Positions 12,192 to 63,027 of a stretch of DNA of 64,000 nucleotides are shown here, piece by piece. Location of the stretch: the NCBI GenBank assembly GCA_964016885.1, contig OZ024741.1, positions 170,996,001 to 171,060,000 on the forward strand, written 5' to 3'. The notes under the pieces were generated by a model. It ran no database searches. It saw only the letters and a program-made list of their open reading frames with translations, and was not told the origin of the DNA. The translations under genes were made by a program, and so were the position numbers. Source of the DNA: Eledone cirrhosa (lineage: Eukaryota). How positions within the stretch are numbered: position 1 is the first letter of the stretch; every line of letters starts with the position of its first letter.

Positions 12192-12554
12192 AATGATGTT
12201 GTTGTTTATGCTGCTGCTGATGCTGTTGCGGCTGCTACTGTTGTTTTCATTGTCACTGTTGCTGTTGTTATTACGGCTGCTACTGCTTTTATTCCCGACG
12301 TCAGACGAATGAAATGGGTTTTCGTATTTCTCGCACACCTTTTTCGTCGTTGTCGTCGTCGTCGTGGAGAAATCTTGCTCGCTTTGCACGTGATTTTTCT
12401 TTTCTGGCGTCGCTTGCGAAAGAAAAGGGAGGGAGAGAGACACATTTAGAGAAGGGAGGGAGAGAGACAATCTTCTCTCTGCTGTAGTGACGATTGAGGA
12501 AGAAGAAGACGGAATGAGTGGGAGTGACCTATGAAAATTCTCTTTCGTAGCCAC
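10422..12554 (-). pseudogene. disrupted ORF1 (S/N low-complexity N-terminus, globular domain, CCHC knuckle, P/T-rich tail) of Tx1 copy A1
   Basis: ORF pieces 11955-12584, 11406-11888, 10731-11261 and 10422-10718; the start codon is GTG where copy A2 has ATG. Confidence 0.75.
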
Positions 12555-12785
12555 GTTGTTTTTTTGTTTAAAATTTGGGCACAAAACCCCAATAAGCGGT
12601 TATTTAACCCCGAAGGGCCAAATAACGGGCAGAAAAACCCCTCTCAGGAGGAGGAGGGTGTTTTTGTCTACAAGTTGGTTAAAGTTTTAAACAATTTACA
12701 ATTGTTATAGCGATCAAAATTTACAATACCTTACAGAGCCGAGCCTCCGTCAAACATAGCATTCAATAATAATAATAATAATAAT

Positions 12786-27470: not shown

Positions 27471-27519
<49 letters not shown>

Positions 27520-27767
27520 TTTCTTTATTAACCACAAGGGTTTACATGAAGTAGACATTAAGGACAGTGCAGGACAATACAGGACGGTACTAATGGGCAT
27601 TTCTGCGTGTAAAAAACAAAAACAGAGGATGTAACAAAAAATAACAATGAAAAATTCCCCAATAGGGGGGAGACTTCGGAGGGACATTTGTGGAGAAAGC
27701 CCAGTAAAAGGCCACAGTGACCCTGACCACCAAGGCAAGTGCCCTCTCCCAGTTTTCCACCTTTAAT

Positions 27768-30700
27768 TTACATATACGTACTCAGAGTAGGCCCATTCAC
27801 TCGGGCCATTCTTGCTTCTCTCACCCATCTTTCAACAAAATGGTGGGAAGAGAGCACTTCCCTCTCTACTCTGATTTTCCTTTTCAAATGAAATTTGAAT
27901 AAGTCAATCAGGGCATCACCGAAGAGGTAAGTGCTCGTCTTCAGCCTTTTCAAACGTGTCCACCATACTATCTCTTTCGCCATGGCCACCAGACAGATAA
28001 AAACTGCCTGCCCTTCCCGGCTAAAGGAAGAGGGCGGGGCAATCCTCACGATGGACTCAGCTGATAGCCGGATGCGTCCTACACGCGACAGCAGGTGTTC
28101 GACATAAACCCACAAGTCAGCAATTTTCGGACACTTGACGAGTGCGTGCAGGACGGTTTCGTCGCCCTGCGCGCATCTCGGACATGCCCGGCTGACGGCA
28201 CCTCCATGCCTGTAGAGTTTATTCCGAACTGGCACGGCTCCTCGGTACCACTGCCAGGCCAAGGATTTCTGGAAGTTGTCCATAGACCCCGGCCCGAAAG
28301 TTCTTCCGAAGAGATTGGCTAGTTGTATTTCGTCGACGCCCAGAGTTTCCCCAAGTACGTCGTCGCTCTTCCCCTCCACTAATCCTCTATAGAACGCCGA
28401 GGTGGAGTTTCCACCGATCACATTGCCCGATTGGTCGAGGGCTGTGAGCGCCTGAAGACATTCCATTCTCCAAGCGCTCCCTCTCGGTCTTCGCTTGACC
28501 CAGGACTGCAGCTCCGTCAAGGAAACGAGCTGGGGAAATACGTGTCTAGCAAACGGCGACCACACCTGATCACCGTCGAGAAACAGGTGGAGATGTCGTA
28601 GCCTGAGCGCGTGTCTGCGCATCATCAGCCACGGCATGCTCAGCCCTCCAAGTAGCGGGTGTTGACAGCAGATGGACCGGCTGACCATCGAAGCGCGTCA
28701 CTTCCACAAAAAGCGAAAGAGCAAACGCTACAGCGCAGTCAGGCGGGGCTTAGGACAAGGTACGACGGTCAGGCGGTAGCAGATGACGAACGCGATGTAC
28801 GCGTTAGCCACCTCCGCTCGACCTTTCAGGGATAGCTTCCTCTCCGCCCATTTCTGGGTGAGAGAAGGCACCCTGCTCGTCACCTCGTCCCAGTTTTTGT
28901 CCGTCTGGAGGTCCGGACCGAACCAGACCCCTAGCAATTTAACCGGTCCGTCCGTCCAGCGTCCGACGACGCTGTTGGACGGCATGGACCTGCCTCTCCA
29001 TGTGCCGAGCTGCAGGCCCACTGACTTTTCCTGGTTGATCATTGCTCCTGTAACCGCTTCGTATTCTCTTAGTGTAGTGCCGATCGCCTCGATGTGTTTC
29101 GCGTTCGACACCACTACGGTGACATCCTCCGCATATGATGACACGGATCTTCCGCATCCTAGTTCGCGCGGGACCCCCCTCAACGTCTCCAGTTTGTGCA
29201 GTATTGGCTCGAGAGTTAATACGTACAAGAGGGACGAGAGGGGACATCCTTGGCGGACCGAGCGCATGATGTTGAACGGTTCCACCGGTGACCGTTCACT
29301 CTCACCACAGAGCAGATGTCGCTGTGCATGGCAGCGATCCAGCCTCTGAAGACGAGCCCAAAGCCAGCCGCCCTCAGGACTGCCGCTAGGTAACGATGGT
29401 CGACCCTATCGAAATCTTTCGACTGATCTAAATTGATCAAGGACCCACCCGTGCCAGGTTCCCTAGCTACCCTCTCTACGATGTATCGCATGAGATGGAG
29501 GTTGTCGTGGATGGATCTGTCGGGAATGGCGCATGTCTGCGCCTCTCCCACCAGACCACCAACGACAAGCGCCAACCTCTTTGCTCGCACCTTGGCCAAA
29601 ATCTTGAACTCTGTGTTTAGCAGAGTTATGGGCCTGAAATTATCTATGTTATCCCCCTTGTTCGGATCCTTTCTCAGCAGTGCCGCCGCTCCTCGGCTCA
29701 CAGAGCTGGGAATTCTCCTGTTCTGTTGCCAGTTGCAGTAGACGTCCGCCAAGAGGCCTCCGAACTAGTCTGGCATCTGTACGTAAAGTTCATAGGGCAG
29801 ACCATCCAAACAAGGCGATTTACCCCTTGTGCAGGCTGTCATTGCCTCCCGTACTTCAGCAGCTGTTATCGGCTTTTCGCAACACTCCGCCTCAGTAGCC
29901 GAGAGCCGCGGCAGTACGTCGAGGTAGACACTAAAGTCCATCCCTCGACCCGGCAATCCGCTGCCCCCGAACAGTTGAGCGAAGTGTCGCTGAATAGCTT
30001 CACACATTTGCCCGGGATCGAGTAGCACGCGCCAGTCGTGGTCCACCAAAGACCGGATCGTGGCTTTGTTGCCACGACGCGCCTCCGCCACTCGGACCCA
30101 TTGAACGGCTTTCGTCCCCTCGTGTCTGAGAGCACGCACCCTAGCTCTGACAACGCAGTCTTCGTGCTTTGCATTGAAGAATTGGTCAAGAGCCAATTTC
30201 GCCGCAAGCACGTGGGTCGCGATACTTTTATAAGCGCCTCGTCTAATTTTCTAACTAGTTCTCCTTCCGCTCTCTTTTTCTCTATTGCTAAAGCCTTACT
30301 AAACCTAATGGATTCTATTCTAATCGCTCTTTTCAGAGCAAACCACCACTTGTTGACGATGGCCCCCGTCAATGCCCGCTTAACTAGTTCGCTAATCCGG
30401 TCTCTGTAGGCCTTGATCGCTGGTAAATACGCGTTTAGCTTCCAGTAGCCGGGTCCTCGTCTATGAAGCCTATCTAAGTCAAGCACACAGATCACGAATT
30501 TGTGGTCCGTGTAGCTGACTATCTTGAATTGTGGACAGCCTATGCTAGACCTATCTATTTTCCTACAAAATACTCTATCTAGATATGATCTGGATGACCC
30601 TATGCGATTTGTCCAAGTCCACATTGGCACATTCGGGAAATCCAATCGTTACCTGTCAGACAGTTCAAAACGCCTGAGCAGGATGGTGAGGCTCTTGCAC

Positions 30701-31183
30701 CCTCCACCCCTATCCGCTAATCCCACACAGTCCCAGCGTGCATCAAAGATCCCGTTCCAGTCGCACACTAACACTAAAGAGCGGGACGTTCCAAGAAAGG
30801 TCTCCAGACGCCAGAAGAAATCAGGCCGCCCTGCTCCTGTCGCGGCATAGACGGCCACTAGCCTGAAAGCTTGCCCGTCTCCGCTGGTCACGTCCAGCTC
30901 CACAAACTTATCCTCTGGGTCCAGGAAGATGGCCTGTATGGCGAGATCCAAACCTCTCCGAAAAAAGCACAACAACTCCTCAACACGATCCAGGACGGCT
31001 GGGAGATGCGTATACATCGTAGCCGCCGAAGATCGGTGCGAAGGCCCGTGCTTCGGAGATTCTGGTCTCGCTGATGGCCACCAAATCTATGTTTAGTGAC
31101 CTGCGGTCGTTGAGCAGGTGACCCTGCTTCCATGACGACCCCAAACCATGCGCATTTATGCTGCCTATTCTGAGTGAGGTCAT
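27768..31183 (-). pseudogene. disrupted ORF2 (APE-RT-zinc finger) of Tx1 copy A2
   Basis: MTSLRIGSINAHGL start; several frameshifts; catalytic YADD changed to YAED and KAFD to KDFD. Confidence 0.9.
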
Positions 31184-31218
31184 GTTTAAAATGGAGTGGA
31201 AAAGATGGAAAAGACCAG

Positions 31219-33352
31219 TTATCGTACTTTTCGTAGAGGAAGGATGGTTTCTCCATCCCATTTCACTTGATCGTCTGGTGAAGGGACCGTTGAATCGTCC
31301 CTTCGGATGGTCGTCGGCTCTTCTATGACTATGTCCGAATATACTCTCCGGTTGAGAATGCCTCCTAGGCCTCTAAAATCAACAACTGCGTTGGGGAATT
31401 TCGTTTTAATGTTTGTGTATTGTTTCTGTGCTATTTTTACCAGTCTTATGTTCGTTGGCGTTTTGATTGGTGCTGGTATTATGTAGTCGTGCTGTGAAAT
31501 GTCTGTGTGTTCAATTATGTAAGTTATTAGTTTCTTGTTGTGTGTATTTATTGCAGTGCATTTGTTTTTCTGAGGGTGGGGTGTGGTTCTGCTATTTTCT
31601 TGTCGTTGTTGCTGGGTGTGCGTGTTTTATTGTTGTGTTTGCGATGTTGGTGCTTGTGGTGGTAGTGTTGAAGGTGTTGTTGTTGTTGGCGGTGGGGTTG
31701 TCGCCGGTGGTGATGGTGGTGCTAGTGTGGGTGGTGATGGTATTGGTGGTGTTGCTGCTGTGAGTCTCTTTGCAGTAGCCTTTACCCTTTTTACATTTAT
31801 TTCCTCCCTTTTCGAAGGTGACGATACGCTGCTTCTGCGTTTGTGCCTTCTTACGACCTTTTGCCATCCCTCTCCCACCTCATTCTCCATGTCTGATTCT
31901 GTGAGGTCGGGGAGGAGTACCAGCTCCACTCTTTCACTTGTTGTTGTTGGTGATGTTTTCAGCGGAGTCTCTGTTGGAGCTGCAGTTGGTATTTCTGTTG
32001 TTGTTGTTAATACTTCCACTGCTGCTGCTGTTCTTGATTTCGGTGGCGTGGGTATGGGTGCCACCGACCTATCGTTCCTGATTGCCGCTTGTCCTGTTGC
32101 TGGTAGCAATGGGGCCTATTTCGGAAGGAGGGGTTTTCTCCTTTCTCAGGGTCTTCTCGTTGCAGAAGGCCCTGAGGTGAGTCTTCGATCCACAGCGAAA
32201 GCATTTCGGGCGTTTGCCCTCAACACTTATGGGCAGTTGAGTGCCGTTATCGAAGTCTATCACACCCGGGATAGCTTCGATGCACTCCTGGTTGGTTTGG
32301 ATTAACATCTCAATGGAGGTGCCGACCCAATCTTCTCTTACTCTTTTCTGTACTTGCAGTACAGTTGTTTTGTCCTCGATTCCGACGAGGACAGACGCGG
32401 CCAGCCAAGAAGGGGCCATCCCGGGGGAGACGTGGGTCAGTTTGACCCTCACAATTTTTTGCCCGCAGTAGGAGGGCACCAACACCATTTCCTCGCTCAT
32501 TAGGGTCACTAAGGATCGAGCCTTTGCCTCAAGGGGTGTAGCAAAAAGCACGTCTACGGTGGAATATTTCTTACCTCGGGTGATATGCTTTTTCCGCTGC
32601 CACACAGACCCCAAGGCTTTTTGTATTTGAGCCTCTGTGGCTCTTTCAACCCGACGGGATTTTGTGCTTACTGTACGGTACGTGACTGTACAGTGCTGTT
32701 GGGTTTCGAAAAGGTTTTCGGGTGCCTTGCAGATTGCTCGGTGTCCGGTTTTCGTCACCATCTTCTTCGCTTCCTGTAATTCCTCAATTGTTATGAGGAT
32801 GGTTTCCAGGTTCTTTGCGATACCTGCAAACGAGATTGTTTTTTCTTTGTTGCTGTTGTTGTTGTTGTCGTCAGAGCTGCTGTTAGTTTTGTTGTTGCTG
32901 CAGGTACTACGACTACTTCCGCCGCCACTGTTGCTGTGGTTGTTGTTGTTGTTGCTGCTGCTGTTGTTGTCGCTGTTGCTGCTAATGCTGTTGTTGTGTA
33001 TGCTGCTGCTGATGCTGTTTCAGCTGCTACTGTTGTTTTCCTTGTCATTGTTGCTGCTGCTGCTGCTGCTGTTATTACGGCTGCTACTGCTATTATTCAT
33101 GACGTCAGACGAATGAAATGGGTTTTCGTATTTACTGCACACCTTTTTCGTCGTTGTCGTCGTGAAGAAATGTTTCATGCTTTTCACGTGATTTTTCTTT
33201 ACTGGCGTCGCTTGCGAAAGAGAAGGGAGGGAGAGAGACACATTTAGAGAAGGGAGCGAGAGAGACAATCTTCTCTCTGCTGTAGTGACGATTGAGGAAG
33301 AAGAAGACGGAATGAGTGGGAGTGACCTATGAAAATTCTTTTTCGTAGCCAT
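31219..33352 (-). pseudogene. disrupted ORF1 of Tx1 copy A2 (CX2CX4HX4C zinc knuckle)
   Basis: ATG at 33352 (MATKKNFHRS); pieces 33020-33385, 32069-32761 and 31627-32109. Confidence 0.8.
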
Positions 33353-33565
33353 GTTTTTTTTGTTTAAAATAAATATTGGGCACAAAACCCCAATAAGCGG
33401 TTATTTAACCCCAAAGGGCCAAATAACGGACAGAAAGACCCCTCTCACGAGGAGGAGGGTGTTTTTGTCTACAATTTGGTTAAAGTTTTAAACAATTTAC
33501 AATTGTTATAGCGGTCAAAATTTACAATACCTTACAGAGCCGAGCCTCCGTCAACCATGGCAATC

Positions 33566-33612
<47 letters not shown>

Positions 33613-33783
33613 TAATAAGGGAAGAAGACGCACGAGGTGACGGAGGTCATGAAATCGCTCCCGTAAGTTTTGAATTTTTAACATATTTAAATCATTTGTG
33701 AAATAACAACTCTTAGTACAAATGCTACGTAAAGCACCCGGCTTGAGCCCCAAAAAAATTCGGACCCAAAATATATTGTTATA

Positions 33784-34426
33784 AGGCTCAAATATTCAAA
33801 TATTCAACTTTGTATTGTACACTGTATATCCAAAAAAAAATGGCTATAAATGGAAGAAGAAGAACCCCCCCCTCCTCTCCTCTGGCTACACTATATAGGA
33901 CAGCTAAACTCACCAACACCAGAAACTAGATACACCACCCACCCCATCATCTGTGTACACTAAACACAACAGCATTTTCACCTTCACCGCCACCGCTCAC
34001 TACGGCCATCATTACCACCACTATCCCATCACCGCCGCCACCACCCCTTGACTCCTTCACTGCTGCTGCCACCGCTACAGCACCATCACTACAGTAATAC
34101 GGCTCAAATATTCAAATATTCAACTTTGTATTGTACACTGTATATCCAAAAAAAAAAAAATAAAATGGCTATAAATGGAAGAAGAAGAACCCCCCCTCCT
34201 CTCCTCTGGCTACACTATATAGGACAGCGAAACTCACCAACACCAGAAACTAGATACACCACCCACCCCATCATCTGTGTACACTAAACACAACAACATT
34301 TTCACCTTCACCGCCACCGCTCACTACGGCCATCATTACCACCACTATCCCATCACCGCCGCCACCACCCCCTGACTCCTTCACTGCTGCTGCCACCGCT
34401 ACAGCACCATCACTACAGTAATACGG
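33784..34426 (+). repeat. tandem duplication of about 320 bp in the leader (33784-34100 / 34101-34426)
   Basis: GGCTCAAATATTCAAATATTCAAC...CATCACTACAGTAATACGG occurs twice, nearly identical. Confidence 0.92.
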
Positions 34427-34995
34427 TCGCATCACCGCCACCACTGCCTCGGTATCGACATCACCACCACCACTGTCTCAGTATCGCCAACGCCGCCAGT
34501 CTCTGCTGGCTACCACTTCCACATTATAGAATTCCTACTACTAACAAAGAGGAAGGCATCAAAATATATAGATAGACTCAAAAGAAAAAAGAAAAAACAA
34601 ACAACAAAAGCAGCACAGCAACAACAGTAAAAAACGAGAAAAACAGAGAAAAACAAAAACAAAAAAAGAAACCCCAAAACGTAAAGAAAATAAGAATGAA
34701 GAGAGAAGCAGGCGGACGGACAGAGAAGAGGGGGGGAAAAAGTAAAACTTAAAAAACAAAAACTAAGTCAGACATTCGAATACTACATTACAATGAAACT
34801 TATGCTTATTCATTTTTGGGGCCCTTTCTGCCCGTGTGTTTGTTTGTTTATGTGTGTCCGTATACAGCGTGGTGATAATGCCACACAAGGGCCAAGTGGG
34901 ATGGCGGATCCACAGATGGCTATGTAAACATACATTCGCCAATCCTCGATAAGAGTGTTTAAATATCGAACATAAACAGTTCGAATAACGGTGAA

Positions 34996-37900
34996 ATGGA
35001 GACTAGAACGTCATGTGACAGACTCTCACCCAACAGGTGCCCCCTGGCTCAGCAGCAGGAACCTGACTGTCAACCAAATACTGCTGATGTTGGAGGAAGA
35101 AGAAGAAGGAAAGGGGCCAGAACCAACTGGACGAAAGAATTGAATAGAACTGTTATGCAATGCTACCTGAAAAGTAACCCCAAGGAGAGGGGCTACAGGA
35201 GACGGATGCATAACATCTGGAACGAGATTGGTTTATTTAAATTAGATGAACAAAAATTGGCCGGGCAGGCTCGGGTAATAAGAACTAATGGGTGGATAAG
35301 CGAGCTGGAACTGGAGGAACTGAGCAGAGAGAATGGCTTGGAGATGGCGGGTGTAGTATGCCAGACAAGCGAGCCGGCGGGAAATGAAGGTGAGGAGGTC
35401 CTGAGAACGGAGGAACCACCCGAAGCAGACAATGATCTGAATACTGAGATAAATAATACCTGGAACAGAGATACGGCCACTGAGGAGATGAATGCTGACG
35501 GGCTAGGACAAGATTCGGTTGACATCCTAAATTTAGTGGTAGATGAGTTGAACAATGATAGTGGGAGACCTATGAACCTAAGATTTGTAGACAGGAAAAA
35601 GTTAAAAGAAACAACAGCTAAGGTAAACAAAGTCATCCCATACCTTGAGGCGAGGAGTCTTCACCAGTGCAACAATATCCTCAAAGCAACAGCAAATACG
35701 GTGAGGAAACTACTTGGTATAAAAGCGAGAGGAAACAACAGACAAGAAAGAGCAGAGCTGTGGTGGAAGAAGCGACTGAGTGGGCAAATCGGGGAAATGA
35801 GAAATGACATAGGAAAGCTTGAGTCACTACTGAATGGGACACTAAAAAACATAGGCACTAAAAATAGACTGGAAATAAAATACAAAACTAGGAGTAAAAA
35901 GCTAAGTATTATCATAGAGGAATTGAAGCAACACATTGTAGCAAAGAGTGCCAAAATCAGGCGATACGAGAACAGAGTCAGTCAGTATAAACAGAACCGC
36001 ATGTTCGACAACAACCAGAAGATGCTGTTTGGACAGCTTGAGGGGAAAGAAAGAGGCAACGACTTGATCCCTGGGGCGGAACAAGCTAAAACATTCTGGA
36101 GAGGAATATGGGAGCAGGATGTTAGACACAATGCCCAGGCAGGGTGGATTGAGACAGTACAGAGGGAGATCGGTGAGCAGGCACAGCAACAGACTGATTT
36201 GAGTATCACAGTTGAAACGCTTAAGGGGCAAGCCAAAAAACTAACCAACTGGAAATCACCAGGCCCAGATGGTGTGCAGGGGTATTGGATTAAACATTTA
36301 ACATCCCTCCACCCGAAGCTGACGGCCATGTTCAATGACTGCTTGGTGTCGGGTGAGGTGCCAGAGTGGTTGACAAAAGGTACCACAGTTCTGATAATGA
36401 AAGACCGAATCAAGGGTAATGTGGTTATCAACTATAGACCTATCACATGTCTGCCCGTAATGTGGAAACTGTTGACGAGCATTGTGTCTGAGGAAATCTA
36501 CCATCACCTCCACACAAACAACTTGTTGCCGGACGAACAGAAAGGATGCCGAAAGAAGTCACGTGGTACAAAGGACCAGTTGCTTATTGATAAGATGGTA
36601 ATGGGGAATTGCAGGAGGAGACACACTGATCTTGCCATGGGATGGATAGACTACAGAAAGGCATTTGACATGGTGCCTCATTCCTGGATCACCAAAAGCC
36701 TGGAGATCTTCAGGGTGGCAGATAACATCAGACAGTTGCTGGGCAGGAGTATGGGGTCCTGGGAGACAGAGTTGACATCAACTGGAGTATCCTTGGGAAA
36801 CGTGAAGATCAAGAGAGGTATCTTCCAGGGAGATAGCCTGTCCCCTCTGTTGTTTGTCCTTGCCCTGATGCCCTTGACCATTATGTTGCGAAAAGTGAGA
36901 GCAGGATACAAGTTGGGAAGGGGAGAGCTTACCATCAATCACCTCCTCTTCATGGACGATCTTAAGCTCTTCGGGAAAAGTGAGAAGGAGTTGGATGTGC
37001 TTGTTGACACTGTCCGTATTTTCTGCAGTGATATATGTATGCAGTTTGGTATTGGTAAATGTGGAGTCATTGTGATGAGGAGGGGTAGGTTGAGCAGAAG
37101 TAACGGGATCCAGATACCAACAGGTGAGATGATAAAGGAAATTGACTCTGAGGAAGGATACAAGTATTTGGGCGTTCTGGAGGCTGATGGCATAAAGAAC
37201 AAAAAAATGAAGGAATTGTTAAGAACTGAATACATTCGGAGAGTAAGGAGCGTATTGAAGTCACATCTGAACAGCAGAAATGCCATAAGCGCAGTAAATT
37301 CCCGAGCTGTGTCTATTATTAGGTACAGTGCGGGAATTCTGAGATGGAATGTTGCTGAACAAAAAGAAATGGATAGGAAGACTAGGAAGCTATTGACTAT
37401 CTACAACATGTTCCACAAGAGGAGTGATGTCGATAGACTCTACCTAAGGAGATCTGAGGGTGGAAGAGGTCTTATCAGCATAGAGGACTGTGTTCAGATG
37501 GAGAAAAACAACCTATACAAATACGTGACCTATAGTAAGGAGCCAATGCTCAGAGCTGTACTGAAGGAGGGGACAGTAGGCCAGGGGATACCCAAGGAGG
37601 AAATAACATCAAGGAGGAAGAGCAGCCTTAAGGGAAAATCCCTTCATAGTACCTTCTTTGAGAAAACTGAATTTAGAGATCCACAGACATGGAACTGGTT
37701 GAGAAGAGGAGACCTCAAAAAGGCTACAGAAGGAATGCTAATGGCTGCGCAGGAGCAGGCCCTCAAAACGAAGTGGTTGAAGCACCATATCTACAAGGAG
37801 GAGGCTAGCCCACTGTGCAGGATCTGTGGAGAGAGAGAGGAGACTGTGGCTCACATTGTGTCCGAGTGTAAACACCTAGCCCAGACCCACTATAAGGGCT

Positions 37901-38370
37901 GGAGACACGATGTGATGGGCAGGGTGATCCACTGGCACCTGTGCAAAGTAAACAATCTACCACATTCTGAGAAATGGTATGAGCATAGGCCAGAGGCGGT
38001 GATGGAGAACAGTCAGGTGAAGGTGCTGTGGGATTTTAGGATACAGACGGACAAAAAACTGGAACACAATAGACCTGACCTGGTGGTTGTGGACAAAGAA
38101 AAAAGATCGTGCCTGATTGTGGATGTGGCCTGCCCGTTCGACACGAGAGTGCAAGAGAAGGAGAGGGAGAAAATTAACCGATACCAGGACCTAAAGTGGG
38201 AGGTGAAAAGGATTTGGAACTGCCATGAAGTCAAAGTGATCCCGATTGTCATAGGCGCACTGGGGACTATCTCCAAAGGTTTCCAGGGATGGTTAAAGAA
38301 AATCGGCCCCTTCACGCTTTTTGGAACGCTTCAAAAGGCATGCTTGATTGGAACAGCAAGAACCCTCTGA
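34996..38370 (+). CDS. R4/Dong-clade polyprotein: N-terminal Myb-like region, reverse transcriptase, CCHC zinc finger, restriction-like endonuclease (1124 aa)
   Basis: WTKELNRTVMQCY..GYRRRMHNIW, KSPGPDG, YRPITCL, IDYRKAFD, GIFQGDSLSPLLF, FMDD, YKYLG, CRICGEREETVAHIVSEC, RHD, RPDLVVVDKEKRSCLIVDVACP; no internal stop until the last 6 codons. Confidence 0.95.
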   Translation: METRTSCDRLSPNRCPLAQQQEPDCQPNTADVGGRRRRKGARTNWTKELNRTVMQCYLKSNPKERGYRRRMHNIWNEIGLFKLDEQKLAGQARVIRTNGWISELELEELSRENGLEMAGVVCQTSEPAGNEGEEVLRTEEPPEADNDLNTEINNTWNRDTATEEMNADGLGQDSVDILNLVVDELNNDSGRPMNLRFVDRKKLKETTAKVNKVIPYLEARSLHQCNNILKATANTVRKLLGIKARGNNRQERAELWWKKRLSGQIGEMRNDIGKLESLLNGTLKNIGTKNRLEIKYKTRSKKLSIIIEELKQHIVAKSAKIRRYENRVSQYKQNRMFDNNQKMLFGQLEGKERGNDLIPGAEQAKTFWRGIWEQDVRHNAQAGWIETVQREIGEQAQQQTDLSITVETLKGQAKKLTNWKSPGPDGVQGYWIKHLTSLHPKLTAMFNDCLVSGEVPEWLTKGTTVLIMKDRIKGNVVINYRPITCLPVMWKLLTSIVSEEIYHHLHTNNLLPDEQKGCRKKSRGTKDQLLIDKMVMGNCRRRHTDLAMGWIDYRKAFDMVPHSWITKSLEIFRVADNIRQLLGRSMGSWETELTSTGVSLGNVKIKRGIFQGDSLSPLLFVLALMPLTIMLRKVRAGYKLGRGELTINHLLFMDDLKLFGKSEKELDVLVDTVRIFCSDICMQFGIGKCGVIVMRRGRLSRSNGIQIPTGEMIKEIDSEEGYKYLGVLEADGIKNKKMKELLRTEYIRRVRSVLKSHLNSRNAISAVNSRAVSIIRYSAGILRWNVAEQKEMDRKTRKLLTIYNMFHKRSDVDRLYLRRSEGGRGLISIEDCVQMEKNNLYKYVTYSKEPMLRAVLKEGTVGQGIPKEEITSRRKSSLKGKSLHSTFFEKTEFRDPQTWNWLRRGDLKKATEGMLMAAQEQALKTKWLKHHIYKEEASPLCRICGEREETVAHIVSECKHLAQTHYKGWRHDVMGRVIHWHLCKVNNLPHSEKWYEHRPEAVMENSQVKVLWDFRIQTDKKLEHNRPDLVVVDKEKRSCLIVDVACPFDTRVQEKEREKINRYQDLKWEVKRIWNCHEVKVIPIVIGALGTISKGFQGWLKKIGPFTLFGTLQKACLIGTARTL

Positions 38371-38501
38371 TACGTCCTGAATATCTGAGGCTGCAGGTAG
38401 TGGCTTGATATTCAATCCAACGGACTTTCCAGTTAACCAACATCAATGACTGAGATTCAAGGAATAACAATAACAATAATAACAATAATAATAATAAAAA
38501 C

Positions 38502-41500
38502 AGAAGAAGAAGACGCACGTGGTGGATAGAAGGTAATGAAATCGCTCCCGCAAGTTTTTGATTTTTAACATATTTAAATCAATTGTGAAATAACAATTCT
38601 TAGTACAAATGATACATAAAGCACCAGACTCCACTCTCAGAAAATCCGATTCCATAATATCCTGTTATATCGCTGAAATATTCAATTTTGTATTATACAT
38701 TTTATATTCAAAAAAGAAAATGGTTATAAATGGAAGAAAATGCCCCCTGTCTACACTATATAGAACAGCCAAATAACAGGAATTTCACCAACACCACAAA
38801 CTAGATACACCACCTACCCCATCACCCCTCTATGTACACTAAATACAACAGCCAGATAACGGCAATTTCACCACCACCAATCCCAGCATAATAATAATAA
38901 TTACTATTATTATTGTCTCAAGTTTCACAAAATGTTTAATTCCAATATTAAGAAATATGTCAACACATATATTAAACATACGCGACAAACCGCATAGATA
39001 CTCAAATCAAACAAACTACAGTCTATTCAACAAAACTCAGTAACGACGACGCCATCGCTATAGTCACCGCCGCCACCACACCATCCATCTAGCAAAAGAT
39101 ATTAATAGATTGACTTAGTGACCCGGCCACCGGCCAAAGTCAACGACTATGGCACTGCTGGATCCCCCCTTCCCCACCAACAATAGAAAAAGCCCCAGCA
39201 CCACCACCGACATAGCCAACAATAATAACAGGCAACTTCAGCAAAAAGTATATTATATTATTAATAATTTCATTCTTAAGCCACGCAATGCTCACATTAA
39301 GGAACCACTCATGATAATAACAATTTAAAAAAAACAACAAAAAAGAAAACCTCGTGACCAAGAAATACCGGGATGGCGGCCGCCGGGGAATAGCTGTGTC
39401 TCTAGGGGAGGGCGACCACTCTAGTCTTTGTTGACACTCGTCCGAAATGATTACTCCTTGGCGGATAAGGATAAAACGCGACAAAATAAAGTAAATGTCA
39501 AATGATAAAATCTCATACCGGATCGGCCGTCACCCGGGTAAAAAAGGGCCGCGTCCCTCAGAGAGGAACCAGACTGGGGTCGAAAAATCAGCTAATGGTT
39601 CAAACCTTCCCATTACTTCGGAGCTGGAGACCTCCCATAACCGGAATACTCCTACTGTTGGCCCTCCATGCTCACCACCAAGAAATCCAAAGAAAAAGAG
39701 AGAAAAATGGTCAAAGGAAGATAATAAAGAAGTCCTTGAGGCTTTCTACACTGCCATGTCCTACCCATCAAATACATCGAATACAGAACTGACATATATC
39801 AATTGTAAAAAGAAACATCCCGAAAACAGAGGCTATATTGACAGTAACAAACTAGCCAATATACGAAGAAATATTGTAAAAAAAAGTTACTAACTGACAT
39901 AGAAATTGATCAGATCAAGCTATTAGCACAAAGTCAGCGAAGGGAAAATGAAACATGTGTCAGTGAAAACGAGGTAAATTGTAACACTTCGAATCCCAGG
40001 GTTGGGGCGGAATCACTGACAACAGAACAAATTAAAGAAAGGATCGATGAAACTCAAAATGAAACTCAAAATGAAAATCAAAATGAAAACAATGAGATCG
40101 TAAATGATAAAGAAATGAATGAGAATGAACTTGCCAACTTGAAGGATGAAATTATAATCGAATGGATGAAAATGAAAGAATCTGACATGGGGGAAGGAGA
40201 CACCCTCCCTAAGATCCAGAACTCCAAACAGAACCAAAAGATAATACACAAGACTAACATAATTCTCAAAAACATTATCATCACAAACAAACTAAACATT
40301 ACTGATTTAAATCATCTCTATTATGCATCGGCTAAAGTCACCACTCACTTTTGTGGAGTGAAAATGAAAAAACAAAGGAATTCCCACAAGAAATCTACTT
40401 GGCAAGAGAACATCAATCGCCAAATAAACCTTCTCCGATCTGACATAGAAATTTTAACAAACTATAAAGTAGGTGAACATGTTAAACAAACTAAACTTAG
40501 AAAATTGAAAAGAAAGTACAGTATAAAATCAACAAGTGACATAGACATGCTGATAGAAATAATCAAGCAAAAAGTGTCGGCCAAAGCTGCTCGTATAAGG
40601 CGCTTTGAAAAACGATCTAGATTCTATAAGGACAATAATATGTTCAGAAACAACCAAAGAAACTTCTACAGAAAAATTGGTAAGTCAACAATAACTGCTA
40701 AATCAATACCACCCAAGGAGGAAGTGCAAGAATTCTGGGAAAAGATCATAATATACATGCCCCATGGATAGACAGAAATATGAAAGATACAGCTCACCTT
40801 GAGGAACAAATATGGCAAAATATAACAGTTGAACAGTTGCGTTTGGCTCTTAGAAAAACCAGCAAATGGAAATCCCCAGGAAAAGACAAAATAAAAAATG
40901 TTTGGATAAATGCCTTCACAGAGTCTCATGAGCTGTTAGCCCAACTTTACAATGAAATAGTTATGGAGCCAGAAAAGATACCATCATGGCTAGTTAACAG
41001 CATTACATTCCTGCTTCCGAAGAATGATGAGACAAACAATCCCAAAAATTACTGACCGATAACTTGCTTGACCACAATGTATAAAATTTTAACATCAGTC
41101 CTAACTGTATAAACATATGACCACCTGATACCAAATGACCTATTTCCCATTGAGCAGAAAGGGTGTAAACAAGGCTCATATGGCTGTAAGGATCAGCTTT
41201 TGGTTAACAAAATGATACTGGAACATTGTCATAATAGACACAAAAATCTATCAATTGCTTGGATAGATTATAAAAAAGCATTCGATAGTTTGCCACACAG
41301 TTGGATTGAAAAATGTTTAGAAATTTTCAAAATATCTCCCGTTGTCAGGAGGTTTTTGTCATTCAGTATGAAGACATGGAGAACGACACTCCTTTTGAAT
41401 AGTGAAACAAAATCACTGGAAGCTGGAGAAGTTAATATTAATTGTGGAATTTTTCAGGGTGACTCTTTATCACCGCTTTTATTCTGCATTGCACTTATAC

Positions 41501-43266
41501 CATTAAGTAAAATACTCAATGAAACAAAACATGGGTATAAAGTCTATGACAAAACCATTAATCACTTTTTCTACATGGATGACCTGAAACTATTTGCAAA
41601 AAATGATGAACAATTGCAAGGGCTATTATCCACTGTGGAGCAGTTCAGTGATGACATTAAAATGGAGTTTGGACTAGATAAATGCGCCAAAGCAACGTTC
41701 ACCAGAGTAAAGCTGCTGAAAAGTTCAGACATTAATCTTGATCGGGGGAATGTGATAAGAGAACTTGATCAAGAGGAAACTTACAAATATCTAGGTGTTT
41801 GTGAAGGAGACGGAATCAAGCACTCGACAATAAGGGAACGGATAAGGAAGGAATGTTACCGCAGAGTAAGAGCAATCTTAAGAACGGAATTGAATCCAAG
41901 GAATAGGATCGATGCCATAAACACGCTTGCCATACCAGTAGTAACCTACAGTTACAATGTCATCAACTGGTCAAGCACAGAGATCCGTAGGCTCGATACA
42001 AAAATTCGAAAATTCTTAGCCATGCAGAGAATGCATGACCCTAAGGCAGATACAGATAGAATATATCTCCCTAGGAAAGAAGGAGGACGTGGGTTAATCC
42101 AGTTAGACATTGCGTTGAAAACTGCAACAATTGGATTATCTACATATCTAAGGGAATCACATGATTGGATGATCAAACTCGTTTTGAAACACGAAAGCAT
42201 CAAAAGATCATACTCCATTACAAAAAATCTACAAAGATACAGTAATGGACTACAAATTTTAGAAGTCCCATTTACTGCTGAAATGGAAAACACAGAAAAA
42301 GCAAAGCAGATAAAAGTAACTGCAAAGAAAGAACTGCTACAGAAACTGGCTAAGAAATGGCAAGAAAAGCCTCTGTATGGAAAATATCCAGAACGAGTTA
42401 ACAATCCTGATATTGACAAAACTTTAACCCATCAGTGGTTGGCATCCTTTGGACTGAAATCGGAGACTGAAGGACTGATTATATCAGCACAAGATCAGTA
42501 TCTGCCAACAAAAAATTACCAAGCCAACATAATAAAAAATGGATGCAGCCCATTATGCCGTGTATGTAAAAAACAACCAGAGACCATTGACCATATAATT
42601 TCAATGTGTAGTCCTATAGCTCCAACCGAATACCTAAACAGGCATGACAGAGCTGCACAATAATACATTGGATAATGTGTAAGCATTTTGACCTGCCCCA
42701 TCAAAAGAATTGGTCGGAGCATCAACCACCGCCCATACTTGAAAAAGATCACATCTCAAGCTTGTGGAACTTTAGCATCCAAACAGACCGAAAAATAGAT
42801 GCAAATAGACCTGATATAATACTGAAGGACTTTAAAAAGAGGGTATGCCTGCTAATTGATATGTCCGTTCCAATAGACAAGAATGTATCTATAAAAACAT
42901 TTGAAAAATTGAGCAAGTATAAGGGCCTGGAGATAGAAATTGGAAAAATGTGGAAATTGAGAACTAAAACAATACCAGTGGTTGTAGGCGCTCTAGGAAT
43001 GATACCTAAGGGGTCTAATGATTACTTATCGCAAATCCCAGGAAACTCGCTTATAGGAGAAATACAAAAGATAGTACTAATGTGAACTGCCCAAATACTA
43101 AGGAAGATTCTCTCAATATAAGTACATCACAAGTCAAAACACCTAAAGATGCATATGTGTGTATGTTTGTTCTTTCTTGAACATGGCGGACCTTGTTGTC
43201 TCTTGAGGTCACTGGTTGTGACTTGGTGATAACTCATATGAACATAAAGCAAGATAAATGCAGCTG
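38502..43266 (+). mobile_element. R4/Dong-type RLE LINE, second divergent family D2, probably full length with leader
   Basis: Follows the D1 (AAT)n tail, has a leader homologous to the one starting at 33619, a disrupted ORF and an (AAT)n tail at 43267-43290. Confidence 0.85.
39495..43121 (+). pseudogene. disrupted RT-RLE ORF of family D2
   Basis: WSKEDNKEVLEAFY, WKSPGKD, IDYKKAFD, GIFQGDSLSPLLF, YMDD, CRVCKKQPETIDHIISMC, RHD, RPDIILKD; multiple stops. Confidence 0.9.
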
Positions 43267-58093: not shown

Positions 58094-58970
58094 AATATAT
58101 ATATATATTCAAATATAATTTCAGCGAGATCGTATTTCGGCGGCGGCCAAAACAAAACGAAACGCAATTTTCGAGATATGCCGGCAAGCGCTCAGTGGAC
58201 TGGGAAGAAACCAGAGCAATTAACATACGTTATAATAGCCAGACACATTATAAAAATGGCTGTGAATTGACAAGCCAGGCAGCCGAAAAAGCGAGCAAGC
58301 TAAACAGGTTAACAACAATTTTTTACCTGGACCTTCCTGGAACTTGGTGGTAAAATCCAGTGGGAGGTTTCTGTGACTTCTAAATCAAGTATATTATCTG
58401 CTTTCGTTGTAAGCTTTCGGTATAATGATCGAACAAGGTAGACACTTTGTCAACAGGTTTTTGCTCTCAAAAGCCTACCAGGTTCAAATGAAGCATTAGT
58501 GAGGCTACTACCTCACGTGGTTACCCTGCAAGGAGATAACCACTGTTTTTGGCGGGTACATTCAAAATGTGTAAAGGAGTTGCAAAATATATATATATAC
58601 ATATATAATAGCCCATACGCAGGTATATACGATATGTTTATACATAATAAAAATATAGAGCTTTCACTATGAATATTTTCAGCTGGGACCACATCACAAC
58701 TAGCTTAGTAGCCGTGTCAGAAAACAGACACGTGATTCAGGAGTTTTATACATCATCAATGTTGTTTACTCACTCTGTACTGAGATAAGACTAAGCATAA
58801 TATGCTTCTATATAAGGTGCTTGTATATGTATGTGTTTATATACATATTTATATATAAATATAGTTGATATGCCACCGTATGCTCCTCTAATTGTGTGTA
58901 TACCATGCATAATACGTACATAGATATATACATACATACATGGATACATACATACATACATGCACGTACA

Positions 58971-61900
58971 ATGGCGACCGTTGTGGTCAGTGCCCGATAA
59001 TCGGACGTGTGTAATTACGGCTTACATGAAGGCAACATACCATATATTGGAAAAAGTTGAGCTACATTACGCGGTAAGATTACATACGATAATTCTACAT
59101 AAGTGTTTGAACTGTGTGTTGTAAAACACCTATTTATATGAACGATACATACACTTTAACATATAAATGCAACGTTGTTATATTACATTTATAAAGAAAT
59201 ATACAAGTAACGTTTTCGATTCAGAAACAAAAATATAAGTGTTTGAACTGTGAATATGTTGTGAATAGGTTGTAGACCACCTATTTATATGAATGATACA
59301 TAAACTTTAACATATAAATGCAGCGTTGTTATATTATATTATATTCATAAAGGAATATACTAAGTAACGGTTCTTTTTGTTCTCGATTCAAACGATTCAA
59401 GAACAACGTTTAAAACACAGTTGTAGAATTAAAAACTAACCGAAAAAAAATATTACCCAAGCTGTGAATAACTTTAAATTTGATTCTGACAAAACTTTGT
59501 CGTAACTTTTAAAGAAGATCATCGACTATTTTGAAAAATAAATACGAAATATTAGTGAATAGACGAACTCATCATGGCAAAAAGTACAAGTCTCCTTCGA
59601 CCAAATCGCAACTACAACCGTTCTACACAGTGGACCTACGAGCTTAACAAAGTATTATATGAAGCATACAAACAATCTGAACCCCAAAAGTTCGGTTTTA
59701 TGCAAAGGCTAAAAACTTTATGGAACTCCAAACACCCAGAATTAGACTTTTCTCCAAAGCATCTAAATGAACAGGCAAAACGTATCATTAGATGTAAATT
59801 GATGCATCTAACGGAATTGAGTGATACTACAAATACAGCCCTTGTAGACAACCACCCCATCTCCACTGACAGACAAAGAGAATGGCCAGCTAAATCTAAC
59901 AGTGAACAGCTCACCGACAATTTTGCTGAAATCCATCCCACTTCCACTGAAGAACAGCGAGAAAGGTCAGCTGACTCTAATAGTAATTGTCACCACATCA
60001 ACAACGAGTCTGAAATTCATGACTCTACTGAACAAACAGAGCACCAAAAACTTGTGGGCACCCTACAAGTGATATGGAACGATATGTTTCAAGAGATACA
60101 CAGCCTTAATGTGAGTGACAGACCATACAACACTAGAGTCAGTAAAGAACCCACTAAATTGGAATTGGAAGCGGTGAACGAAATAGTTGGCAATTATCTG
60201 AAGGCTATACAATCTAAAGGTGTAGAAACGACATTTGAAACGCTTAATGTTTTGTTATATGTTTCAGCTGTCACATTGCTATCACACACATCTAAAACCA
60301 CGCAATCAAGATACAAACAGAAAGCCTGAACCAGCGTGGATGCGAAATTTAAAAACCAAAATGTTGTCCCTGAGACGAAGTATCTCACACATCGCAGTCG
60401 TTATGAAATGCAACATAGAGAGCAACTTCACACGACACCAGGAAGACCTAAAGAAAAAGTTAGAGACGATTTGGAGATACAAAATTTTAAACTTGAACTC
60501 CAAATTACACCAGTTGAAACAACAACTCACAGCTACAACAGAAATACTAAAATATAAGTCAACAGCACATAAACGACAAGTTCTAAATAGATTGTTTGCC
60601 AGAGATCCTAAATCAGTTTATCGCAGCTTAGGTGGCAAAAGCTCAATTCCTGTAAACGACACCCCTTCAAAAGAACAGGTTGAGAGCTACTGGAGATCTG
60701 TATGGGAAACGGATGACGGATTCAACAGACAAGCTAATTGGCTAAAAGAACTGGAACAGGACTACTGCCAACATGTCCAGACAAAACAATATGACATAGA
60801 TGGGTCAATACTGGAAACAGCTCTACAGAAAATGTCGAATAGGAAATCGCCAGGCCCAGACCTCATTACAGGATACTGGTTGAAGAATTTCACTTTCTAT
60901 CGGCAAGATCTCCTACGGCTGTTTACAGAAACCATTAAGGGCACACAAGAAGTGCCCAGATGGTTATCAACTGCCACTACTCTCCTCATTCCCCAAAATA
61001 GCCAAACCACCCTTGCTAAAAATTACCGCCCAATTGCCTGCCAAAACATCATGTATAAATTATATACTGGGTGCCTTAACCTGTTCTTACAGGATCACTG
61101 TGCTACCAACAACATCATAACACCTGAGCAAGCTGGTGGAAAGAGGGAGGTGTGGGGTTGCATAGATCACCTACTAACTAACAAAATGATTCAGGAAAAA
61201 ACAACAAAGAATCGCTGAAACATGACTGTCGTGTGGCTAGACTATCAAAAAGCATTCGATAGTGTACCTCATGGGTGGATTATTAAGGCTTTACAGTTAG
61301 CTAAAGTCCCACAACCATTGGTAGCTGCTGTTGAACGCCTGACCAAGAACTGGTACACCAATGTGATCCTTAGAGGTGAGAAGGAGCAGGCTAAGACTGA
61401 TAAGATACATTACCAGAAGGGCATCTTTCAGGGTGATAGCTTGTCGGTGCTACTCTTCGTTCTCTCACTGAATCCACTATCTTACCTACTCAGGAAACAA
61501 GGTGGACAAAGAAGTGGGCCCAGAAGTATCTCCCATCTTTTCTTTGTTGATGACCTGAAGTTGTATGGGCCAAATATCAATGACATCAAGAAACAATTGG
61601 ACCTCATTACACAATTTTCAACTGACATCAAAATGAAATTTGGTGAGTCCAAGTGTGCATATTTGGCAAAACGTGGAAGAGCTGTGCCCTCCTCTAGAAA
61701 TCTAGAGATGAAAGAAAATATGGTCATCAGAACTTTCAGCATACAACAAATACATTGCCCACAATACTTATGCTGTGCCAATTCTAACGCCAACATTTGG
61801 CCTACTGAACTGGTCATTGCAAGAACTAAGTGAGATGGATGTTAGAACTCGAAAACTTCTCAGTGTTACTGGGAACTTTAACATCAATGGTGATGTGGAT

Positions 61901-63027
61901 AGGCTATACTTCTCACGCAAGGAAGGTGGCTGGGGTCTAAAATCAATATTAACAACATATGAGACCCGGATAGTAACACTGAAGCAACACCTTCAACAGA
62001 GGAAAAAGGTTGGCAACCATCTTGCCCAGGTTTATGAGCATGAAAAAAGAAATATCATTAGAATAGCGACTGATCTGGAGGAGAGATATGGAATAAAGCC
62101 TGATATAAATATCTCACCCAGAGAATTCGGAAGATCCTATTCAATGTTCAAACAAGATAAAAAAATTGACCAATTTACAGAAAAAGTTGTGCATGGATAC
62201 TTGAGGCGTAAAACACAGACCATAGAGGGGATAAACCACTCAAAAAGCCTGGCATGGAGTTCCAACAAGTTTATGACATCACACCTTGAGGGATATCTCT
62301 ATGCAATACAGGAACAAGAACTCCCTAGCAAATATCTGCTGCACAAAAAGCAGGGCCAGCAGCTGACAATAAATGAAGGCTATGTAAAACAAAGATCGAG
62401 GATGTAAGCCACATTGTTGCCAGCTGCGAAAGAATGTCATCTCGCTACTACCTCCCCATGAGACACGATGGGATAGCTAGAACCATCTGGAACGCACTTC
62501 GGAAAACAAAATTAACAACAAACGAGGAAGAATATATTGAGACAGATGGCACTAAGGAATACTGGTGGAACCGGAAAATAAAAACTGCCACCAAATTAAA
62601 GCACAACCGACCTGATATTGTAGTTTGGGACCACACATTGAAAACGTGTTCTGTTGTGGAGATCAGCTGCCCACTTGATGTAAACGTTGTCAGAAAAATA
62701 CAGGAGAAGGAGGACATCTACGGACGATTGATGAGGAGTTTACAAATCCAGTATCCAAGATACACCTTTAGCTTCGTACCCATCATTATTGGTGCTACGG
62801 GTTATATACCAACCCGCTTGGACCAAAGTATGACTAAACTTGGATTTGCGGACAAAAAGCGCAGCTCCCTAATTCATAGTCTACAAATGGCTGCGATAGC
62901 TGGCACCTTCAAAATTTGCAAAACATTCTTGCGATTCAAGGGATAACAATTTCTTTTCCTCTACAACCTTGCCACCAGGAAGGTGGCCGGTCAAAAAAAT
63001 ATACTCGAAATTAAGAGAAAGACAAAA
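58971..63027 (+). mobile_element. third RLE (R4/Dong-like) LINE family D3, probably 5'-complete, flanked by (TACA)n
   Basis: Disrupted ORF; (TACA)n at 58928-58970 and from 63027; tandem duplication of about 135 bp in the 5' UTR (59100-59215 / 59236-59370). Confidence 0.85.
59574..62946 (+). pseudogene. disrupted RT-RLE ORF of family D3
   Basis: WTYELNKVLYEAY, KSPGPD, YRPIAC, LDYQKAFD, GIFQGDSLS, FVDD, RHD, RPDIVVWD..VEISCP; stops, frameshifts and loss of the YKYLG region near 61710. Confidence 0.9.

Follow-up and report, generated by a model that had tools for sequence, protein, structure and literature searches.

R4/Dong elements begin with a Tx1-like leader

We found that the R4/Dong elements of this genome (hereafter Dong) begin with a leader that resembles the 5′ UTRs of Tx1 elements and that has been exchanged between Dong lineages. 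The best explanation of this likeness is that Dong captured a Tx1 5′ end long ago, a reading that we favor with modest confidence from the sequence comparisons below. In the window, the 64-kb stretch analyzed here from a host genome of 3.0 Gb, two-ORF APE elements occupy (AAT)n runs on the minus strand, and single-ORF RLE elements occupy such runs on the plus strand.

On the minus strand, Tx1-A (27518-33565) is a full-length, Tx1-like two-ORF LINE that is frameshifted in this copy, with ORF fragments matching RT and zf-RVT; a near-complete ORF2 of the Tx1-A type elsewhere in the genome has APE, RT and zf-RVT. Its 5′ UTR of 213 nt (33353-33565, minus) comprises a box variant, a T-rich tract, a strong hairpin and an A-run, and leads into the ORF1 start codon (33350-33352, minus). 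The 5′ UTR of a second Tx1-A copy, whose start codon is mutated, lies at 12545-12764 (minus). Tx1-A and Dong-A stand head-to-head across an (AAT)n target common to both (33566-33618, plus). The Tx1 5′ UTR (33353-33565) and the Dong leader (33619-33842) lie where the earlier note on this DNA had placed them, with Tx1-A starting at 33565 (ORF1 ATG at 33352) and the Dong leader at 33619 (ATG at 33840); the strings quoted in the note are also correct.

On the plus strand, Dong-A opens with the Tx1-like 5′ module (33619-33842), which ends in an A-run and the ATG at 33840 and contains an 11-nt box (33657-33667) that all Dong leader types share, unaltered, with the UTRs of Tx1-I and Tx1-J. The rest of the leader (33843-34995, plus) is A+C-rich triplet-repeat sequence and is followed by an intact ORF (34996-38370, plus) with RT, a CCHC knuckle and a restriction-like endonuclease motif. 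Within the leader lies a 324-bp tandem duplication (33781-34426, plus); its unit contains the A-run and ATG and varies in copy number among copies, and the distances from box to ORF differ between Dong-A copies in steps of about 320 nt. Another (AAT)n run (38463-38497, plus) separates the Dong-A 3′ end from Dong-B, which has its own Tx1-like 5′ module (38504-38730, plus; box at 38544-38554, with one mismatch here) and an ORF (39495-43085, plus) that is frameshifted in the window and present as intact 1216-aa copies elsewhere in the genome. A third R4-like family (58962-62946), inserted in (CATA)n and 30% identical in protein to Dong-A, has a leader that is unrelated and about 600 nt long.

The labels Tx1 and Dong rest on domain layout and target. 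Dong-A has the R4/Dong layout, with a single ORF, a central RT (RVT_1, E 6e-23) and a C-terminal CCHC knuckle and restriction-like endonuclease; the CCHC and PD..D..K motifs were read from the translation by what we take to be their usual definitions. No Pfam match was obtained for a Myb/SANT-like domain at the N-terminus, and a W-containing motif was seen there by eye. The Dong elements are found at (TAA)n, the target given for R4/Dong in the available text of PMC7998251. The Tx1 elements have the layout of their clade, with a zinc knuckle in ORF1 and APE, RT and a zinc finger in ORF2. Relative to the microsatellite, the two families are oriented as the earlier note had described, with (ATT)n preceding the Tx1-A 5′ UTR at 30 of 30 loci and (AAT)n or (AAG)n preceding leader-A at 30 of 30.

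The leader is part of Dong and has moved between Dong lineages

All 30 leader-A loci fetched, from 40 full-length matches, continue into Dong-A. Among copies selected by their ORF, the whole module is present in 12 of the 20 taken from each family, Dong-A and Dong-B (24/40), and the remaining 16 start part-way down the same leader, like 5′-truncated copies. The leader is integral to Dong and is the true 5′ end of the (AAT)n-targeting Dong elements. The proposal that it travels as part of Dong is borne out at 30 of 30 leader-selected loci, with 0 of 40 ORF-selected copies carrying another leader; we also looked for full-length Dong copies lacking it and found none among these 40, all of which belong to young subfamilies. 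A separate SINE or other non-autonomous insert lying beside Dong is excluded by the leader-selected loci and the ORF-selected copies. No stand-alone copy of the module was seen, since every full module fetched enters a Dong or Tx1 body or family sequence, the last class being the module loci for which no ORF hit was obtained.

At the protein level Dong-A shares 36% identity with Dong-B, and a sample of 30 homologues from other sources shows 43-63% identity to Dong-A and 33-39% to Dong-B. In a whole-element blastn of Dong-A against Dong-B, the leader alone was found in common (73% over 379 nt). Of the 30 leader-B loci fetched, 5 lead into a Dong-A-type ORF and the other 25 into Dong-B, 7 of the latter belonging to a single tandem array; leaders ahead of these two kinds of ORF are 95% identical across 714 nt and then diverge. 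Hence, with ORFs 36% identical and leaders up to 95% identical, leaders have been swapped within R4/Dong. As judged from these alignments, at least one recent leader transfer took place between deep Dong lineages, and this swap between Dong-A and Dong-B holds irrespective of where the leader came from.

The leader lies ahead of the ancestral Dong 5′ UTR

As an outgroup sample we obtained, from a metagenome scan, 80 loci of Dong relatives, of which 27 reach the N-terminus and 13 were measured. In 12 of the 13 there is an upstream (AAT)n, from which it is 115-356 nt to the first ATG of the longest frame; the same span is about 990 and 1380 nt in the Dong elements of the window. Neither the Tx1 nor the Dong profile found a match below E 3.9 at the 80 loci. 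We found that a profile built from four outgroup UTRs and run on 1.06 Mb of the genome matches the stretch directly 5′ of the Dong-B ORF (best E 7e-16), including positions 39356-39445 (plus) of the window (E 4e-9); Dong-A-type copies match this native element weakly. Hence, Dong-B retains its ancestral UTR behind about 850 added bases. By these comparisons the leader, which is absent from the outgroup relatives examined, is shown to be an addition ahead of the ancestral Dong 5′ UTR.

The native element at 39356-39445, homologous to the 5′ UTRs of foreign Dong relatives (L299, L302, L308 and L327), is conserved and has no Rfam match, and 8 of its 28 predicted pairs show two-sided change. It is probably a structured RNA and possibly a ribozyme or a translation signal. 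Two of the metagenome relatives of R4/Dong have tRNA-like heads immediately after (AAT)n: L313 (9-145), with an A and a B box, and L317 (24-150), with an A box and, by eye, a B-box-like stretch. ARAGORN called no tRNA in either head, and a similar head was seen by eye in L333.

The Dong leader resembles the Tx1 5′ UTR family

We collected 14 types of Tx1 5′ UTR from 464 kb around the window and from fetched loci. All 14 run 200-230 nt up to an A-run and start codon, and most have a GCTCCCGTAAG-like box 25-50 nt from the 5′ end, followed by a T-rich tract and hairpin. All Dong leaders found have the same colinear layout of GCTCCCGTAAG-type box, T-rich tract, A-run and ATG, with the box again 25-50 nt from the 5′ end and the A-run/ATG reached at 200-230 nt. 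The module spans Tx1 groups whose ORF1s are 30-60% identical, and the Tx1-A UTR runs on into Tx1 ORF1 at 30 of 30 loci. Types I and J were found by searching for the Dong box in Tx1 orientation, which at the same distance from the 5′ end gave 285 overlapping matches against 0 in the control; because this search found both types, the box is circular evidence for them. Type J is of Tx1 type: 6 of its 9 copies match ORF1, APE or RT.

The stable Tx1 hairpin (about +125 to +175; -9 to -24 kcal/mol) has no counterpart in the Dong leaders (-2 to -8 kcal/mol). Within Tx1 it occupies the same position in most UTR types (33395-33430 in the window), with differing sequences and often a four-base loop. 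At two loci (L171 and L175), Tx1-E/I-type 5′ UTRs stand ahead of ORF1s nearer to Tx1-A than to Tx1-E, which suggests that UTRs have been swapped among Tx1 families too.

Against a background of 600 real AT-matched fragments, comparisons of three Dong leaders with the 14 Tx1 types gave z of 1.2-6.3, with 33 of 42 at 3 or above; the 5′ ends of the R4-like (CATA)n family and of an RTE reached at most 1.0 in the same test. Dong-Tx1 scores (152 ± 34, n = 42) equal those between Tx1 groups (145 ± 51, n = 80). Run on about 0.84 Mb, a profile made from Dong only ranked Tx1-E (E 2e-4) and Tx1-B and Tx1-A (0.16) above unrelated DNA. When the profile was run on 600 kb of fresh DNA selected for its Dong content, the first seven non-Dong matches were all Tx1 5′ UTRs (E 5e-4, 7e-4, 6e-3, 0.01, 1.2, 1.6 and 1.9), and the first unrelated match came at E 4.8. 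At E ≤30 the profile matched 8 of the 15 Tx1 5′ ends in this DNA and missed 7; all three canonical Tx1-A UTRs were missed, and the Tx1-A′ subfamily, which is close to Tx1-A, and the Tx1-E, -I and -J types did score.

None of 60 block-shuffled profiles reached the real summed score of 95 bits, which falls to 47 bits once the box is removed and to 17 bits once the A-run/ATG is removed as well, a value that 1 of 40 shuffles reached. In the reverse direction, a profile of nine independently found Tx1 UTRs reached Dong at E 0.37, and one of 13 UTRs reached it at E 0.0014, the added types having been found with the Dong box. In a tree of the UTRs, Dong forms one clade on unresolved deep branches. 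These comparisons show the Dong leader to resemble Tx1 5′ UTRs beyond chance and beyond other LINE 5′ ends.

The adjoining Tx1-A is not the nearest relative of the Dong leader

The earlier note had aligned the Dong leader with the UTR of the Tx1-A element beside it. Aligned globally, each of the four pairs formed by two Tx1-A UTRs and two Dong leaders scores above every one of 1000 dinucleotide shuffles (z 3.8-5.4), but their local scores were matched by 14, 107, 165 and 435 of 1000 shuffles. Because the end points of the window pair came from the earlier note, its alignment is weak taken alone, and the Dong profile gives the window Tx1-A UTR 0 bits. The shared string GACGGAGG is real in Dong-A but confined to it, the youngest Dong family: GGTGACGGAGG matches in Dong-A only, and other leader types have GGATAGAAGG, GGATATATATCG or GGTAGAACG at that site.

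The proposed likeness across clades survives in that the Dong leader is closer to Tx1 5′ UTRs than are background sequence or other LINE 5′ ends. Tx1-A as its particular counterpart does not: the likeness is to the whole Tx1 UTR family, and the nearest types are Tx1-J around the box and Tx1-E/I overall. A tie between the module and a shared microsatellite, also proposed, is refuted; the module is independent of a common microsatellite because a Tx1 family adjoining (ATCT)n (type K) carries it. A recent direct transfer from Tx1-A to Dong is ruled out by the weak local scores, the UTR tree and the profile misses. Any transfer of the leader between Tx1 and Dong is old, not recent.

Origin of the leader

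The leader was probably taken once, in the distant past, from a Tx1 element and later passed between two deeply split Dong lineages. The direction would be from Tx1 to Dong because the module is broad in Tx1, with many groups and two targets against one R4 target group, and because its ATG is the ORF1 start in Tx1 but begins no conserved frame in Dong. This ATG opens 40 codons in Dong-A and 18 in Dong-B and is TTG in some copies. The orphan ATG may be the former Tx1 ORF1 start; an ATG without ORF1 is what is expected of a vestigial start.

Tx1 and Dong neighbours lie antisense to each other in 84 of 86 cases (59/60 and 25/26), with no present-day same-sense fusion of Tx1 to Dong among these 86. 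Because the neighbours in (AAT)n are antisense, plain nesting is unable to give the fusion. Two routes could: the Dong reverse transcriptase may have jumped from its template to a Tx1 RNA, or Dong may have inserted where a Tx1 ORF1 begins, in its AAC/AAT-rich part, with read-through afterwards. The triplet sequence 3′ of the Dong ATG has an A+C content of 0.65-0.68, which fits the route by ORF1 insertion, and a search at one AAT site found no match for a sense Dong insertion in the Tx1-A ORF1. A decayed Tx1 ORF1 behind the Dong ATG was considered and not adopted: its composition fits, and its alignments with Tx1 ORF1s are not convincing (best z 3.7 of 56 comparisons). No close Tx1 donor of the Dong leader was found.

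The likeness might instead be convergent, the Tx1 and Dong 5′ ends having been fitted independently to the same host factors through a promoter/splice-donor-like box (GTAAGT), an AT-rich spacer and a host A-rich start-codon context. We regard this as unlikely, although the box and A-run/ATG do carry most of the score, Dong lacks the Tx1 hairpin, a high-identity donor is missing and the box ends in what we take to be a good 5′ splice-site sequence. Within this genome the 5′ ends of other LINEs do not have the module, and the box does not rise above background next to (AT)n/(AC)n/(CATA)n (32 against 101 in the control) or next to (TCT[AC])n (0 against 2). Convergence would also leave unexplained the Tx1-J match, which extends about 15 nt beyond the box (partly selected by the search), and an ORF-less ATG at the Tx1 ORF1 position with no obvious use in Dong.

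That both clades took the module from a third party, such as the 5′ end of one host gene or a shuttling non-autonomous element, seems improbable to us: Dong 5′ ends do look modular, with tRNA-like heads in two outgroup relatives and a SINE-tail-like piece in some intact Dong-B leaders, but the module had no stand-alone copies among those fetched. Least probable is a chance likeness of AT-rich sequences. The single window pair, weak locally and without a bit against the Dong profile, would suit it; the held-out ranking, the real-sequence backgrounds, the block shuffles and the identical 11-nt box at the same 5′ distance (the 285 matches against none) speak against it, and at the family level these comparisons largely refute it. 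Of these readings, the old capture from Tx1 is the one that we carry forward.

Transcription and translation of Dong

A full-length LINE copy needs a promoter of its own or excision from a longer transcript. We found that hundreds of full-length Dong copies have a single G run as their common start (1324 overlapping matches against 1 in the control) and that the box is unchanged while its flanks drift. Rfam gave no match to the leader at gathering level. No HDV-like ribozyme was found in either UTR by Rfam or by a descriptor run without a positive control, and such hits were sparse in the outgroups too. The leader is probably an internal RNA polymerase II promoter, in which the box would act as a factor site or as a promoter-proximal splice-donor-like signal. 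Copies would benefit by carrying their own promoter and would not depend on read-through and self-cleavage. Because 13-14 ATGs lie upstream of the Dong ORF, its translation would need internal initiation or reinitiation.

Comparison with known systems

To our knowledge, the transcription of RLE elements outside rDNA is poorly known. The R2, R4 and Dong elements tested so far are released from a longer transcript by self-cleavage, according to the available text of PMC3774820, where Bombyx mori Dong and Ascaris R4 cleave themselves at the 5′ end through an HDV-like ribozyme. These two belong to the same clade as the elements here by domain layout, and the Dong target is (TAA)n (PMC3774820). Unlike them, the elements here have a leader of 1-1.4 kb and no ribozyme was detected. 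Kibi and Koshi belong to the Tx1 clade and target microsatellites, namely (TC)n and (TTC)n (PMC4494074, in the text available); the Tx1 elements here differ in lying at (ATT)n, with one family beside (ATCT)n.

In mammalian L1, as described in the accessible part of PMC3600994, families with similar 5′ UTRs are not monophyletic and young 3′ ends recruit other 5′ ends, for which RT strand switching is one proposed route. That exchange takes place among L1 families or from unknown sources, whereas here it joins R4/Dong lineages at 36% protein identity and, unlike in L1, probably also crosses the RLE/APE divide. A non-autonomous precedent across clades is provided by the Drosophila R2/R1 SIDEs, RLE/APE hybrids with a common target region (PMC3414825, in part). 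SIDEs are short and place an RLE ribozyme before an APE 3′ end, and R2 template jumps are described there as adding 5′ sequence (PMC3414825). Unlike SIDEs, the element here is an apparently autonomous RLE element with an APE-type 5′ end. We found no description of a Tx1-derived 5′ end on R4/Dong in the literature searched, Repbase and subscription papers lying outside that search.

If true, promoter capture between RLE and APE elements would extend L1 5′ UTR recruitment to exchange between clades, and would mean that very distant LINEs can use the same host transcription factors. In its widest form, which we offer tentatively and with some doubt, an autonomous RLE LINE would have exchanged ribozyme and read-through for the promoter of an APE LINE and passed it to a second lineage, giving rise to the present burst; the R4/Dong 5′ end would then be a slot for host retroelement promoters, filled by a Tx1 UTR here and by tRNA-like heads elsewhere. 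Because the families are young and have many intact ORFs, the module and the 11-nt box are directly testable.

Recent activity of the Dong families

Dong-R4 and L1-Tx1 LINEs have been recently active in Octopus vulgaris (PMC13282606), and O. bimaculoides has a Dong with a full ORF (PMC9115989), as stated in the portions of these papers available. In the genome studied here, many Dong-A copies (1141-aa frame) and Dong-B copies (1216-aa frame) have intact ORFs genome-wide, and their leaders are near-identical, pointing to a very recent burst of both families. Several intact Dong-B copies contain, inside the leader, a stretch that looks like the 3′ tail of a common SINE-like repeat (L179:1710-1755). 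At least seven Dong-B copies form a head-to-tail array with a period of 4.9 kb (G000:C2:353611526-353641229).
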